DNA of 55,601 nucleotides, the filler included, from Basidioascus undulatus (taxonomy: Eukaryota), in assembly GCA_000826855.1 (NCBI GenBank). It is 4 parts of 4 records of this genome, joined end to end, with 100 filler letters (N's around TTAATTAATTAA, not from the genome) between each part and the next. Parts side by side here need not be neighbours in the genome. Positions count along the whole stretch, not along the records: positions 41,793 to 55,601 come from JTLS01000785.1; 3 more parts are not named here. The stretch is one strand, 5' to 3'. This document shows, piece by piece, positions 47,647-54,350 of this stretch; position 1 is the first letter of the stretch, and each line of letters begins with the position of its first letter. A program made the position numbers and the translations under genes. The notes beneath the pieces are model-generated. The model ran no database searches, was not told the origin of the DNA, and saw only the letters and a list, made by a program, of their open reading frames with translations.

Positions 47647-47806
47647 ACTGATATAGAAATTAGGCGAAGAAGGACCCCGAGAACGCATTGCGTTGATTCC
47701 TCTTCGACGCCCAGAAGTCTTCACGGCACCGTCTTCCATCGCCCTCGCTGATTCTCACTTACACCTTCACGTACCTCTTTTCTGTCGCCCCCCCCCACCC
47801 TTCTGG

Positions 47807-49212
47807 ATGGACACTGTACTGCAATTGGCCGACACCTACTTCCTGGATTGGGCGTGGGCGAGAATTCTCCCAGCGGCACCTTCACTCGCCTGCGCACGCT
47901 CCAACCTTCTCGCCGGCGCTGCCAATGCCGCAATTCGTCCCAGCCCACTCACGGGCAACTCCGCCCTTACTTACACCGCATCAGAGCCGGACTATATCAC
48001 GGGCGACCTTCATTCCCCATGAGAATATGCGAGCTCGCACGGGACAACATTTTCCGGCAGTTCGCGAGCTTGACTCTCCTCGTTTACGTTGGCATCCATA
48101 TCCTCTGTGCGTCTTCTTGTGTCTCTAGTTTATTCTAGCTGGAGGATAGGGTCTAAACAATAGACTATTTTGGGGTCAAGACTTCACCTGTGCCGGGGCG
48201 TCCTACTACCTCGTCTTCAACCACCACGTGATGAACCATCCGCGCTTCCTCAAGAACCAGGTCCAGCTCGATATTGCGGCGTCTATCCGCGCTTTCCTCC
48301 CGCTCACTCTCATGACCGTGCCATGGTTCGTGAGCGAGATTCGAGGACACTCTCTGCTGTACGAGCATGTGGACGAGTACAGCTGGGCGTACTTCTTCTT
48401 CTCCATCGTGTGGTTCATCCTCTTCACCGACTTCTGCATTTACTGGGTGCACCGCCTCGAGCATAGGCAGGAGGTTTACAAGTGGCTTCACAAGTGTGTT
48501 TTCTCTTCCTTTCGAATCCTCCTCGATTTATGGCTGAGCTCCTGACTCGATCGTCTCTCAGACCCCATCACAGGTGGCAAAGTGCGTGCATGTAGCGCAT
48601 TAGTGAGCAAGGAAGGCGCTGGCCTCATTGGACACTGACATCGTGGGTCTTTCATCTTCCACAGTCCCAACTCCATTTGGCGCCTACGCTTTCCACCCTC
48701 TCGATGGATATCTCCAGTCGGTGCCGTACCACCTCTTCGTCTACCTCTTCCCACTGCACAAATACCTCTACCTCGGCCTCTTTGGCTTCGTCAACCTGTG
48801 GACCATTATGGTCAGTCTTCCTCCTTCCTCCTTTTCCACTGCTGGCTGGACCGTTTATTCCATTTCGTATAGATCCACGACTCCGACATGATCTGCGGTT
48901 ACTCGCCCGAGAAGGTGATCAACGGCCCCTCGCACCACACACTGCACCACCTGTTCGTCGTTCTTCCCTTCCCGCTGACCTCTCGCAGGCGTCTTACATT
49001 CCCGACTTAACATGCTGTTTCGGTCAAGATACTTTACGTGCAATTTTGGCCAGTACTTCACATTTAGTGACCGCATGTTTGCGTCCTACCGCCAGCCCGA
49101 GAAGAGCCTCGATCTCATGCTCGAGGTCAGAGCGCTCATGGCGAGCAAGGCGAAAGCCGAAGACGGGAACGCGATAGAAGGCGGCCAGTCCGACTCAAAA
49201 AAGTTGAATTAG
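47807..49212 (+). CDS. ERG3: C-5 sterol desaturase; exon 1 apparently frameshifted (possible pseudogene)
   Basis: [96 protein letters not shown]. The ATG 47807 frame stops at 48020-48022. Confidence 0.9.
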
Positions 49213-51747
49213 ACCGTCAAATCGTAAGTATGCTTGCCTTGGCTCCTTCAGATTCCTCCACGCGCTGATCTTGCGCTGAAGCGTCTCTTTCAACTTCCTC
49301 TCCCGCAGCAGCTCTTTCTCTCCAGGAGCCTCTTCCTTAAATCGTATTATTTGCTCTTTCCCTGCAGGATCGCTTCAAAAAGCACATGTGTATATTCCCC
49401 ACCTCACCACACCGTTTTCCAATGCGCTAGCTGCTACACATGACAGAAAGATAGTTCGCATCGCGATGAAGATTTTCGGGATGCTGGCCGTTGACTGAAT
49501 GAGACGCGAAACAAGCTGAACGAGCTCCCTCAAGGTCTATACTCAAGATGTTCTTCAGCAGGGAAAGCCAAAATTATTTCGATAGTCCTGAACGTATAAG
49601 TCGGAAGTACAAACAAAAAAGCCAGTTGCGATCCTCCGCAACTGATTTGACGAAAGTCCCCGTCTTTTCGGACCATATCCTAAGTCTAGCGCCTCAGACC
49701 GCTGAGGCATCTCAGCAACTATAGAAGTAATGAAAGAAGTCATTGGACTAGAAGCTTGAGTTGCATGCAGCGGTCAGCAATCTCAAGCGTCTGGCTGTCC
49801 GGTGCTTCACTTTCGATGCCGCGAGCGCAGACTCGCACCTGGGCATGCCAAGCCTCACGCATTTGTTTGTCATGAATAAGGTTTCCGACCATATTACTGG
49901 ATTCCAGAAGATCAGCCAGTTCGCCAAATTTGTTACCCTTTCGCCGACGCTGCAGAGGGTCATCTTTGGGATCATCCACCCGCCTGAGTGGAACACGGCA
50001 CCGATTTGCAGGCTCTCAAGGATGATTTCCTGAGCCAAATGAAAACACTTGTACCCCCTTCCATTTCCCAAAAGTTGCAGTCCTATTGTGGGGCGTATTC
50101 GGTGGCGATAGAGACGAGGACTCCTGGTTAACCGACCGGGTCGTCGACGGGGCGCTTTGGGATGGAGGAGTAGGGTGATGGGAGCTTAGGAAGCTTTGGA
50201 GGGTGAAATGCTAAGAACGAGGTAGGAATATTATTTAGCTGCTATTTTGTGATGCGAGAATGCACCTCGAATAGAATGTTGATGTACGCAGCACCACCGG
50301 AGTTCAAATGTGTTGTCGACTCACATGGGGCCGCAATACGCTGTAAGCGTTAAACTCGCAAGATTAGCAGCAATACCTTCGCCTCGGCAAAATTTCGATG
50401 TTTCTCTTATGTGCTCCTGCTGGGTGCATGCAGTTGCCCGAGGAACTGCAATCACTCTCAAAAGCTTGCAGAGGTCTCAAGTAAGGACCTGCGACAGGCC
50501 CAGGTTGTTCAAGCCCACCTATGGCAGGCCCCAACAGACTGAAGCTCTTGTAAGCTCCCTTGAAGACTGAACTACCACAAAGCGCTTTACACGGAAGCTG
50601 CCCTGCGCAGCGCAATGACCGGCGCAGAAGTACTCAGTGCCGCGAAGTATGTCGCGACCTCGGTCGAAAGTCCAGGCCCCTATAAGAACTACGGAATGGC
50701 ATGGGCAGGACACCGTAGGTGCAGTAAGCTGACCGGCTCGCACACCTTGTCGGTTCTCGCGGCGTGCTGCTGACGTTGCGCGAAGTTCACATCACCACTT
50801 TCAAAGCTGAGCTGTATTGCCGCGTGCTAAGCCGCCAGAAAACAAGCTTAAGTATTTTACAGGAACTCGGACGGTTTCCAATCCAGCATCGAGATAGCTT
50901 TCTCGAGAACCGTTGTTCTCTGAACAACCTCCAGCGTCTCGACTAGCCTGCAGGCTCCCTGCTTCTTTCGTTGCTCTTCACGAATGGCAGATCAAGAACG
51001 AGTGTCCTGTTGGAGATGGTGCTCATCCCAATCTTTCTTCGCTGATAGGAAAACCGGCCTAGGTCCCGAGTGCCCAGTCCGACATTTTCCGCCTCGCAGT
51101 ATTGCACTGCCCTCGCGAATTGCAAGGCCATTTCTTCCTCCTTTTGGCTTAGACTGAACTCAAGATTTCAGGAGCTTTTTCAAGGCCCGAAAGTGCTGTT
51201 CCCGGCCTATGCTTGGTGGGTGTTGTCACTGGCACTTACATCGCAACCAGCCCCGCGGCGTCTTTCGCCCTCTTAGACCTCCCCTGTGAATGTACGGGCT
51301 TTTACCAGGCTTGTTGTAGCGTGTGTAATAGTGCTGATTGGTGGGTGGAAAGCTTCTGAAAGACGCGGCCAAGATCAGCCCACGGCTGTGCAAGGCATGC
51401 TGGGCCGAAACCCTTCGCACATCCGAAACTGCAGCTGGTCCGATAGTTCCGCAGAATAGCGCTCTCATGTCGGCCTGAAAATGCACTTGCATCATGCATG
51501 TTCACATGAGGCAATTTACGGATACTCTTTGCGGTCCATGCGAAGGCTCTACTTCCCGTAAAGGATAACGGAAAAGAAAAAGAGGCCTGAAACACCGGAA
51601 GAGGAGCGCGGGCACTCCCGGCTTCCCAGCAGCGCGGGCGCCGGATGCGCTTTGATCGCCCCGCGCTGGCAATATCAAGTCCGCGCCTTGTTCCTTGTTC
51701 CTCCCTTCTCCCACCATCTCACTTACCCTCTCACCGAGCCGCTTTAC

Positions 51748-52102
51748 CTGCCCAGCCTACGAACGCTTATTTGCGCTGTAAGTCCATCGACTCTGCGGAC
51801 ATACTCGTAATCCTACTCACGCTCGCTGTGGCTGTGCAGCTCAGCGTTAACAACCCTCTCGCTCTCACCTCCCCAGGTTTATGTTCTCCAGGTTCGTCAT
51901 CCCTCTGAGATCAGTGACATCGCTCGATGGATACTCATGCTCCGTTGGGCGCTACAGGGGTCTCAAGAGTCCTCACAACTCCCACGGTTCGTCGACGAGC
52001 GCGCTTTTTCATCTGGCAAACTGAAGGCGATGCTGACGATGTTCTCGACGGACCACAGCTGGTCAACACACCGAGGCGTGCTGCTGCTTAGCCTTCTTCT
52101 AA
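51748..52102 (+). CDS. Spliced non-AUG upstream ORF of INO1 (candidate regulatory peptide)
   Basis: Exons 51748(or 51763)-51777, 51840-51876 and 52059-52102 give (LPSLR)TLICALSVNNPLALTSPAGQHTEACCCLAFF*; no in-frame ATG. Confidence 0.6.
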
Positions 52103-52160
52103 ACGTCTCCTCGTTGCGCTTTATCCTTTACTACACCAAAAAAACACAAAAATATATACA

Positions 52161-54350
52161 ATGGCACCCGTCGCTACCAACACTTTTTACACGAACGGCC
52201 ACGCCGCCGCGTCCTCGCCCTTCGCGGCCGAGCTGTCCCCGCAGCCCGTTCACGCGACGGCGGCGCGCCGTGCGACGACGCTCACCGTCGACTCGCCCGA
52301 CGTGAGCTACACCGAGGAGGCTATCACAGCGAAGTACGAGCACCGCGGCGCACGCGTCGACCGTGACGGCGACAAGATCAAGGTCACGCCGACGGCTAAG
52401 CAGTGGGAGTTCAAGACCGCCCGCAAGGTCGGCAAGACAGGGTCAGTCCTTCCTTACTTTCTGGTCCGCATTGGGAACCACGGTCGGCTTATGCCTTATG
52501 CATTGGCAACGTTAACAGTCTCATGCTTGTCGGCCTCGGCGGCAACAACGGCACGACGCTCGTCGCGACCGTGCTTGCCAATAGGCACAACGTGTCGTGG
52601 CGCACCAAGACCGGCATTCAGACGCCCAACTACATGTGCGTATCTGCCTTTTCGAAAACCCGCATAGTGTGCACAGCTCAATCGTATCGCCCCACAGCGG
52701 CTCGGTCACGCTCGCTTCGACCGTCCGTCTTGGCTCTGACGCCGCGGGCAACGACGTCAACGTTCCTTGGACCGATGTTCTCCCGATGGTCCACCCGAAC
52801 GACCTCGTCCTCGGCGGCTGGGACATCTCGAGCGCTCCGCTCGACATCGCCATGCGCCGCGCCGAGGTCCTCGACTGGGACCTTCAGCGCCAGATCGCGC
52901 CGCTGATGGCCGAGTACAAGCCGCTGCCGTCGATCTACGTGCGTCCTTCCTGCGCTCTTTTCGAGGGTGCGGCCTTTGTTGACATGCGTCTCATACGCTA
53001 CCACAGTACCCCGACTACATCGCGACCAACCAGTCCGAGCGCGCCGACAACGTCCTCGACGCGAAGGAGTACCCGACCAAGCAGTCGCACGTCGAAAAGA
53101 TCCGTAAAGACATCCGCGAGTTCAAGGCCGCGCACGGGCTCGACACGGTCGTCGTCTGCTGGACGGCCAACACGGAGCGCTTTAGCTCGGTCGTCCCCGG
53201 CAAGACGGACACGCCCGAGAACCTGCTCAAGAGCGTCGAGGAGTCGTTCGAGGAGATCAGCCCGTCGACCATTTTTGCCATTGCCTCCATCTTCGAGGGC
53301 GCCCCCTTCATCAACGGCGCGCCGCAGAACACGTTCCTCCCCTCGGTCGTCCGCCTCGCCGAGCAGAAGAAGTCATTCATCGGCGGTGACGACCTCAAGA
53401 CTGGCCAGACGAAGGTCAAGGTGTGTCGTCTTTCCCTTAATGTGCTTCGCCTCCCGCCCACTTCCTGACTACGATTTTGTGCACGCCAGTCGGTCCTCGC
53501 CGAGTACCTCGTCAACGCTGGTATCAAACCGCTCTCGATCGCGTCGTACAACCACCTGGGCAACAACGACGGCCACAACCTCTCCGAGGACCCGCAGTTC
53601 AAGAGCAAGGAGTGAGTCCCCGCCACAACATGATGGTTCCCGCGGCGTCGGCGGTGTCTCTGACCTCACTTCTTGCGCAGGATCACCAAGCGCAGCGTCG
53701 TTGACGACATGGTAGACGCTAACCGGCTGCTCTACAAGGAGGCCGACAAGTCCAAGGGCGAGAAGAAGGGCGAGCACCCTGACCAGTGCGTTGTCTCGCT
53801 GCATTCCCCTTGCGCCGAATCGGAGTCTGAACGAGCGCCCCATTTACAGCATCGTCGTGATCAAGTACCTCCCGGCTGTCGGCGACGACAAACGTGCCAT
53901 CGACGAGTACAACAGCGAGATCATGATGGGCGGCCGCAACGTCCTGTCGATCTTCAGTGCGTTTGCTGTCCCTCTCGCCACCCGCTTCTCTTCCGCCTTC
54001 GTTACCCGCGCCACCGATGTCTAACCCGACTTTCTCCTGTCACAGACATGTGCGAAGACTCGCTGCTCGCGACGCCCCTCCTGCTCGACCTCACGATCTG
54101 GACGGAGCTCTTCACGCGCGTGACGTACCGGACCGCGAGCGAGGGCAAGAAGGACGTGGAGGGCGACTTCCAGCAGCTGCACAGCGTACTCTCGCTCCTG
54201 TCGTACATGCTCAAGGCGCCGATGACCAAGCCCGGCAACGAGGTGGTCAACTCTCTCGGCCGTCAGCGCAACGCGATGGAGGCATTCGTGAAGGCTTGCA
54301 TTGGCCTAACCCACTCGAACGACCTCAACCTTGAGTCGCGCACCAACTGA
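52161..54350 (+). CDS. INO1: Myo-inositol-1-phosphate synthase
   Basis: [89 protein letters not shown]. Confidence 0.97.

Follow-up and report, generated by a model that had tools for sequence, protein, structure and literature searches.

The leader of the INO1 gene of Basidioascus undulatus is predicted to carry an intron-split, AUG-started copy of an upstream open reading frame (uORF) whose peptide recurs before INO1 in many fungal loci and is under selection. The gene lies in the window analysed here, a stretch of 55,601 nucleotides (filler included), and its leader probably contains this locus's version of a conserved-peptide uORF that is ancient in fungi, with an attenuator-type mechanism; the proposed anatomy of this uORF comes from comparison between loci, and its mechanism is modelled on that of other conserved-peptide uORFs. 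The features discussed below are, in order along the window:

51778..51839, plus strand: candidate leader intron I-a, 62 nt, opening with GTAAGT, closing with CAG and carrying CTCAC some 21 nt from its 3' end.
51840..51891, plus strand: leader exon with the predicted uORF start (AUG 51881-51883, codons 2-3 and two bases of codon 4).
51892..51957, plus strand: predicted intron I-b inside the uORF, 66 nt, opening with GTTCGT, closing with CAG and carrying CTCAT some 21 nt from its 3' end.
51958..51986, plus strand: predicted micro-exon, 29 nt, running from the third base of codon 4 through codons 5-13 into the first base of codon 14.
51987..52058, plus strand: probable intron I-c, 72 nt, opening with GTTCGT, closing with CAG and carrying CTGAC 22 nt from its 3' end.
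52059..52102, plus strand: probable last uORF segment, codons 14-27 and stop TAA 52100-52102; it coincides with the third exon and stop proposed by the first-pass annotation.
52103..52160, plus strand: spacer from the uORF stop to the INO1 AUG, 58 nt, A-rich at its 3' end and with zero ATG.
52161..54350, plus strand: INO1 (myo-inositol-1-phosphate synthase) coding region, a gene model that resembles fungal INO1 proteins.

The INO1 gene model comprises eight exons and seven introns, encodes 563 amino acids and runs from ATG 52161, which sits in a strong context (A at -3, G at +4), to a stop at 54350. Where the two can be aligned, its product resembles INO1 proteins of fungi at 71-78%, which points to a probable basidiomycete; the closest named protein is that of Wallemia mellicola (71.6% over aligned parts), the closest unnamed partial proteins reach 77.8%, and exon 4 is up to 77% identical to fungal inositol-3-phosphate synthases. 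The seven coding introns measure 62-89 nt, with donors that all read GTNNGT and acceptors that all read YAG. They served as the local splice reference, as a census of ORF-bridging GT..AG pairs intended for a local splice model (2326 candidates, then 64) yielded no clear consensus and was too noisy. The roughly 2.3 kb upstream of the INO1 promoter (49200-51500) contain stop-free frames of at most about 145 codons on both strands, and the upstream neighbour, at about 47700-49200 on the plus strand, consists of ORF pieces with a histidine-box motif that by eye look like a fatty-acid-hydroxylase or sterol-desaturase family protein. A CATGTGAA element, presumably the core of the budding-yeast inositol/choline-responsive element, is found on the minus strand at 51501-51508, 380 nt upstream of the uORF AUG at 51881; the window holds four such elements against 1.4 expected, a count of at least four being reached in 6 of 100 shuffles, and the excess is suggestive only.

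A metagenome scan with INO1 exon 1 alone brought zero relatives among 597 pattern matches, and a protein search with the same exon brought zero among 231 candidates; the INO1 N-terminus is too diverged for searches with exon 1. A second metagenome scan, with an alignment of seven fungal INO1 N-termini as its query, confirmed 430 relatives, and the best 80 of these 430 were kept (L001-L080). None of these best 80 exceeds 65% identity to the window's INO1; many of them are cDNA-like, the protein match being one unbroken stretch, and others are genomic. Usable upstream sequence, defined as at least 77 nt before the assigned INO1 ATG, was available for 74 of the 80. The taxon labels given to the loci are those of the nearest named INO1 among 35 named proteins and serve as a rough guide; no budding yeast was identified among the 80 loci.

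Half of this set (37 of the 74 upstream regions) fell into a single blastn cluster, linked by a block of some 60-100 nt located shortly before the ATG. The block corresponds to an AUG-started uORF of 26-27 codons, present in 36 loci as 16 distinct peptides. A profile search of stop-to-stop frames recovered the same peptide in further lineages with a non-AUG first codon: ACG in L005, L016, L026 and L037, ATT in L020, L028 and L029 (each preceded by an in-frame stop two codons upstream), and CTG in L023. With the best reverse-complement score (7.5 bits) as threshold, an intronless forward-frame match was obtained in 49 of the 74 loci; L042, L062 and L065 also match, at 26.7-33.6 bits, after removal of one GT..AG intron, which brings the loci with a peptide-conserved uORF before the INO1 AUG to 52 of 74. 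The carriers are Agaricomycete-, Malassezia-, Tilletia/Violaceomyces-, Pezizomycotina- and Mortierella-like, and several of the matches (e.g. L002, L010, L023, L025 and L037) sit on intron-free cDNA-like contigs. Splitting of the uORF is also seen elsewhere: in five ascomycete-like genomic loci (L038, L042, L057, L062 and L065) it is interrupted by a canonical intron, the spliced forms scoring 26.7-35.0 bits and starting at ACG in four cases and at ATG in one. The intron occupies one common position in these five loci, 23 nt past the start codon, which differs from the intron positions in the window. The uORF match is absent from 22 of the 74 loci, many of which have short leaders; these include the Sporobolomyces-like L006 and L007, and L003 and L004 (leaders of 217-359 nt). 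Taken with L013, these loci have leaders of 217-700 nt and no convincing match, although L013 falls in a DNA cluster with the positive locus L016; loss of the uORF, more introns or a misassigned start codon may account for them.

The conserved peptide follows the motif [start][FY][SA]NxLxSxH[NH]x[HY]xG, after which comes a variable tail. Among the 26 distinct versions, the uORF is 27 codons long in 19 (range 26-32) and its stop lies 4-96 nt before the INO1 ATG. The start codon and its surroundings vary together: the 18 distinct AUG versions all carry a pyrimidine at -3 (T in 17, C in one), and the eight near-cognate versions (four ACG, three ATT, one CTG) all carry an A there, so that start codon and -3 context are inversely matched and start strength looks selected or tuned. 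Codon use over the first 19 codons of the 26 nucleotide versions is diverse where the peptide is not: the invariant L6 is written with five codons, the invariant S8 with five codons drawn from both serine families, R14 with six and G15 with four, and over 325 pairs the mean pS is 0.83 compared with a mean pN of 0.28. Selection acts on the uORF peptide. Two other explanations of the block were discarded: conservation of the RNA in place of the peptide is ruled out by this codon variety and by the pS and pN values, and an N-terminal coding exon of INO1 by the stop that precedes the AUG in cDNA-like contigs.

For the window itself, ATG-started ORFs in 51461-52160 were enumerated after removal of no more than two GT..AG introns, each 45-130 nt long, giving 55 candidates with one intron and 167 with two. 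Among those with one, the top scorer begins at ATG 51881 with 51892-51957 (I-b) excised and reaches 17.2 bits against the broad profile; the next best scores 5.3 bits, and the unspliced frame -2.0 bits. The controls, 156 window regions of 700 nt from both strands and 1000 dinucleotide shuffles of the leader, peaked at 9.6 and 12.1 bits, respectively. A narrower, Agaricomycete-only profile gave 13.6 bits with one intron (control maximum 11.2) and 17.4 bits with two (control maximum 11.8). Removal of I-b restores the spacing of the conserved uORF, with matches at M1, F2, S3, L6, S8, H10, N11 and H13, the conserved core LxSxHNxH being encoded by codons 6-13 in the micro-exon; the two-intron form matches the consensus at position 15 as well. 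Position 4 is R, compared with N in 25 of the 26 family versions. Like the other AUG versions, AUG 51881 stands in a weak context (T at -3, T at +4). The profile has 27 positions and its alignment to the window covers positions 1-15, which leaves the C-terminal half unaligned in either variant.

Because the collections contain no close relative, the assignment of the window's copy rests on this 15-residue profile match and on splice signals. It might be objected that the match is a chance product of the many GT..AG combinations and that the leader holds no functional uORF, given a short profile with 15 aligned positions and the 55 and 167 candidates tried. However, in neither the 156 control regions nor the 1000 shuffles did this enumeration come up to the score seen in the leader, and the match was found on the correct strand, in the expected place and before the same gene as in 52 of 74 loci; chance is a very improbable explanation. 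The copy of the conserved uORF predicted here would tolerate one kind of missplicing in frame: I-b (66 nt) has no in-frame stop, and its retention would insert 22 residues after R4, between the uORF start and the conserved core. Intron I-a precedes the uORF and is of a size found among the INO1 coding introns (62-89 nt); it is a good candidate and may well be real, its splicing depending on where transcription starts.

Where the uORF ends depends on the second intron. If I-c is spliced, the uORF enters the last exon in the same phase as the frame of the first-pass annotation and ends at TAA 52100-52102 after 27 codons; if I-c is kept, it runs to TGA 52022-52024 and has 25 codons. Splicing of I-c, and hence a 27-codon uORF, is judged likely on several grounds taken from the DNA and the family: 27 codons is the mode of the family and 25 is below its range; the geometry at the 3' end matches that of the INO1 introns, as do, more generally, the size, branch site and branch-to-acceptor distance; the donor is of the type validated by homology for I-b, their 8-mers being identical; and the four ATGs other than that of the uORF between 51700 and 52160 all fall in the proposed introns, two in I-b and two in I-c. 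Because the profile misses the C-terminal half, the case for I-c is confined to splice signals, ATG depletion and length.

The same conserved uORF with only its first intron spliced, ending after 25 codons at TGA 52022-52024 with 51987-52058 kept, is an unlikely alternative that nevertheless has points in its favour. Its 17.2 bits cannot be separated from the 19.1 bits of the two-intron form (two other variants of the second intron, with poorer splice signals, score 19.8 and 19.4 bits), its tail resembles by eye the T-S-A-x-F tails of some Agaricomycete-like versions, and it dispenses with the internal exon of 29 nt, whose small size counts against the two-intron form. Against this, none of the 26 distinct versions is as short as 25 codons (range 26-32), ATG 52030 (G at -3) and ATG 52039 would stay in the leader, the first of them in a frame that overlaps the INO1 start, and the segment that would be kept has an I-b-type donor, CTGAC and CAG at a spacing like that of the INO1 introns. 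Returning to the favoured 27-codon form, ATG 52030 lies within I-c and opens a 91-codon ORF that crosses the INO1 start out of frame. Retention of I-c would expose this ATG and its overlapping ORF (52030-52305), and if the 29-nt exon were skipped, with 51891 spliced onto 52059, AUG 51881 would fall in the frame of that same ORF; either event could act as an off-state for INO1. A terminator-like scan, of a bacterial type whose calls as such do not carry over to a fungus, also placed the I-c donor in a short palindromic stem-loop of five pairs (51987-52000), which could in principle affect use of that splice site.

The first-pass annotation had proposed a different uORF in this leader, a three-exon frame starting at CTG 51748 or ACG 51763, with 51877-52058 removed as a single intron. 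Its raw observations are borne out: GTAAGT at 51778 and the CAG ending at 51839, like GTTTAT at 51877 and the CAG ending at 52058, are in the sequence; the joined frame of 111 nt from CTG 51748 to TAA 52100-52102 is open; no in-frame ATG occurs back to a stop before 51562; and the stop is separated from the INO1 ATG at 52161 by 58 nt. This model also shares its last exon and stop with the favoured one. A 36-codon non-AUG frame is, however, at chance level here, since 52.6% of 2000 dinucleotide-preserving shuffles of the leader, spliced according to that model, hold a near-cognate-to-stop ORF of at least 36 codons. Its peptide scores -1.2 bits against the conserved-uORF profile, and the first 22 codons, like the CTG 51748 and ACG 51763 starts, find no support. 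The conservation it was expected to have did not appear in the 74 fungal loci: the best same-strand match among their INO1 upstream regions, a small search set, has an E-value of 0.099, the sole lower value (0.007) lies on the opposite strand, and tblastn, blastn and tblastx searches with the peptide and the leader DNA returned chance-level matches only. The segment 51877-52058 is not a single intron, because the conserved ATG 51881 and the 29-nt exon 51958-51986 lie inside it and would be deleted, taking with them both start and core; its GTTTAT donor overlaps that ATG and lacks the +5 G present in all seven INO1 coding introns. In the window, the conserved uORF starts instead at AUG 51881, and the three-exon non-AUG frame is, in our estimation, most improbable. 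Thus, the motifs described by the first-pass annotation exist, but the frame drawn through them does not exceed chance and one of its introns is wrong; its general idea, a multi-exon regulatory peptide uORF in the INO1 leader, holds, with start, exons and peptide other than those it proposed, and the uORF probably ends at the stop already proposed.

Several known systems resemble the INO1 uORF in part. The closest fungal parallel is the uORF for the arginine attenuator peptide (AAP) of CPA1/arg-2, likewise short, peptide-conserved and placed before a biosynthetic gene. According to one source (PMC7049704), the AAP uORF has about 24-27 codons, its nascent chain acts in cis when the pathway product is sensed, and its mRNAs are NMD substrates; the AAP is a fungal precedent, and in fungi weak AUG and near-cognate starts are exchanged for one another. 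The gene differs, as the window's downstream gene is INO1 and not CPA1/arg-2. The two peptides are, we presume, unrelated in sequence; moreover, the AAP uORF starts at AUG whereas the INO1 uORF alternates between an AUG in weak context and near-cognate starts, and the INO1 uORF, unlike that of AAP, is intron-split in the window and in the ascomycete-like loci. The uORF of plant GDP-L-galactose phosphorylase (GGP) offers a second likeness, a conserved peptide on the controlling enzyme of a small-molecule pathway. Its repression, as described in PMC11066804, is confined to high product levels and requires the right peptide sequence, in an ascorbate feedback. It belongs to plants and to a different gene, its peptide is not known to be related to that of INO1, and its function was established with mutants, whereas the INO1 uORF has a proposed one. 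The GGP uORF starts at a non-AUG ACG, a start that the INO1 uORF has in four distinct versions.

A third parallel concerns the start codon. Ivanov and colleagues reportedly described, in 2008 and 2018, the upstream conserved coding region (uCC) of antizyme inhibitor and ODC homologues, with a near-cognate start in good context and a conserved peptide. In the uCC, pausing brought on by a metabolite lets scanning ribosomes pile up behind and so increases initiation at the weak start, the effectors being polyamines. A design of this type predicts the inverse relation between start codon and -3 base seen in the INO1 uORFs, although the effector, the peptide and the genes are different and queuing on INO1 is conjectural. 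The uORF in the window does not share the near-cognate start of the uCC or GGP type and has an AUG in poor context; relatives have ACG, ATT or CTG with A at -3. Finally, in Saccharomyces cerevisiae, INO1 is under transcriptional, inositol-responsive control by UAS-INO, Ino2/Ino4 and Opi1, and the yeast uORF sits on the regulator INO2, not on INO1. This control concerns the same enzyme and responds to inositol, but it works at the level of transcription and leaves the INO1 leader aside.

Three traits mark out cis-acting attenuator uORFs: conservation of the nascent peptide, constancy of length and a start that is inefficient by design. By analogy, the INO1 uORF probably throttles production of the enzyme, and we infer that inositol is what it senses; as INO1 catalyses the committed step of inositol synthesis, inositol or an inositol phosphate is the natural candidate signal. 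At low signal, most scanning ribosomes would pass the weak uORF start and reach the INO1 AUG in its strong context. When the small-molecule signal is high (most plausibly inositol or its phosphate), the nascent peptide would stall its own ribosome in the leader; the stalled ribosome would block and queue those that follow, raising initiation at the weak uORF start, and the stall and queue together would reduce translation of INO1. The stall may also expose the INO1 mRNA to nonsense-mediated decay. A preprint reports that INO1 mRNA is up in a upf1 mutant of C. neoformans, a rise compatible with this mechanism that does not amount to evidence for a link.

A less probable but serious reading is that the uORF is real and conserved without sensing inositol: it could damp INO1 constitutively or give NMD a handle on it, answer to a different cue (such as phosphate, polyamines or the general state of translation), or encode a trans-acting peptide. 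A conserved peptide and a weak start would fit any function that depends on the nascent peptide or on the peptide product, and the connection between uORF and inositol is one that we infer. On the other hand, the uORF is tied to a single gene, that of the committed inositol step, from Agaricomycete- to Mortierella-like loci; the AAP and GGP uORFs on biosynthetic genes report the product of their own pathway; and a mere damper needs no conserved amino-acid sequence. The attenuator-type mechanism responding to inositol or its phosphate is retained as the preferred reading. It can be extended, tentatively and at rather long odds, to a broader scheme in which the uORF, with a spread that takes in Mortierella-like as well as Dikarya-like fungi, would be the principal and ancient feedback sensor for inositol synthesis, its His-, Arg/Lys-rich chain binding inositol or inositol phosphate in the ribosome tunnel, its start held at intermediate strength and two-intron splicing adding a further layer. 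An intermediate start (a weak AUG, or ACG, AUU or CUG in strong context) would, together with queuing, let the stall work as a switch with intermediate settings. Splicing of I-b and I-c would, in this organism, form the second layer, with retention or exon skipping giving an AUG-started ORF that runs across the beginning of INO1.

The full-text literature covered, which takes in a minority of subscription journals, yielded no account of a fungal INO1 uORF; the words inositol, inl and INO1 are absent from Ivanov et al. 2017 and from Wallace et al. 2020. The first-pass annotation had mentioned, with reserve, that a near-cognate conserved uORF was reported for fungal INO1/inl; the family found here, with a start that is often near-cognate, fits this. 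The INO1 uORF is of a known kind (conserved-peptide uORFs), and appears to be undescribed as a family and as a control point of INO1.

INO1 is a textbook case of transcriptional control in budding yeast, and the control of inositol synthesis in other fungi is little known. For annotation, the lesson of this leader is that motif-called leader "introns" can conceal coding micro-exons. The family provides a natural example of the swap between weak AUG and strong-context near-cognate starts, and the hypothesis is directly testable in tractable species. The INO1 uORF would add a metabolite-linked translational attenuator to the few known, namely those of AAP, GGP and uCC.
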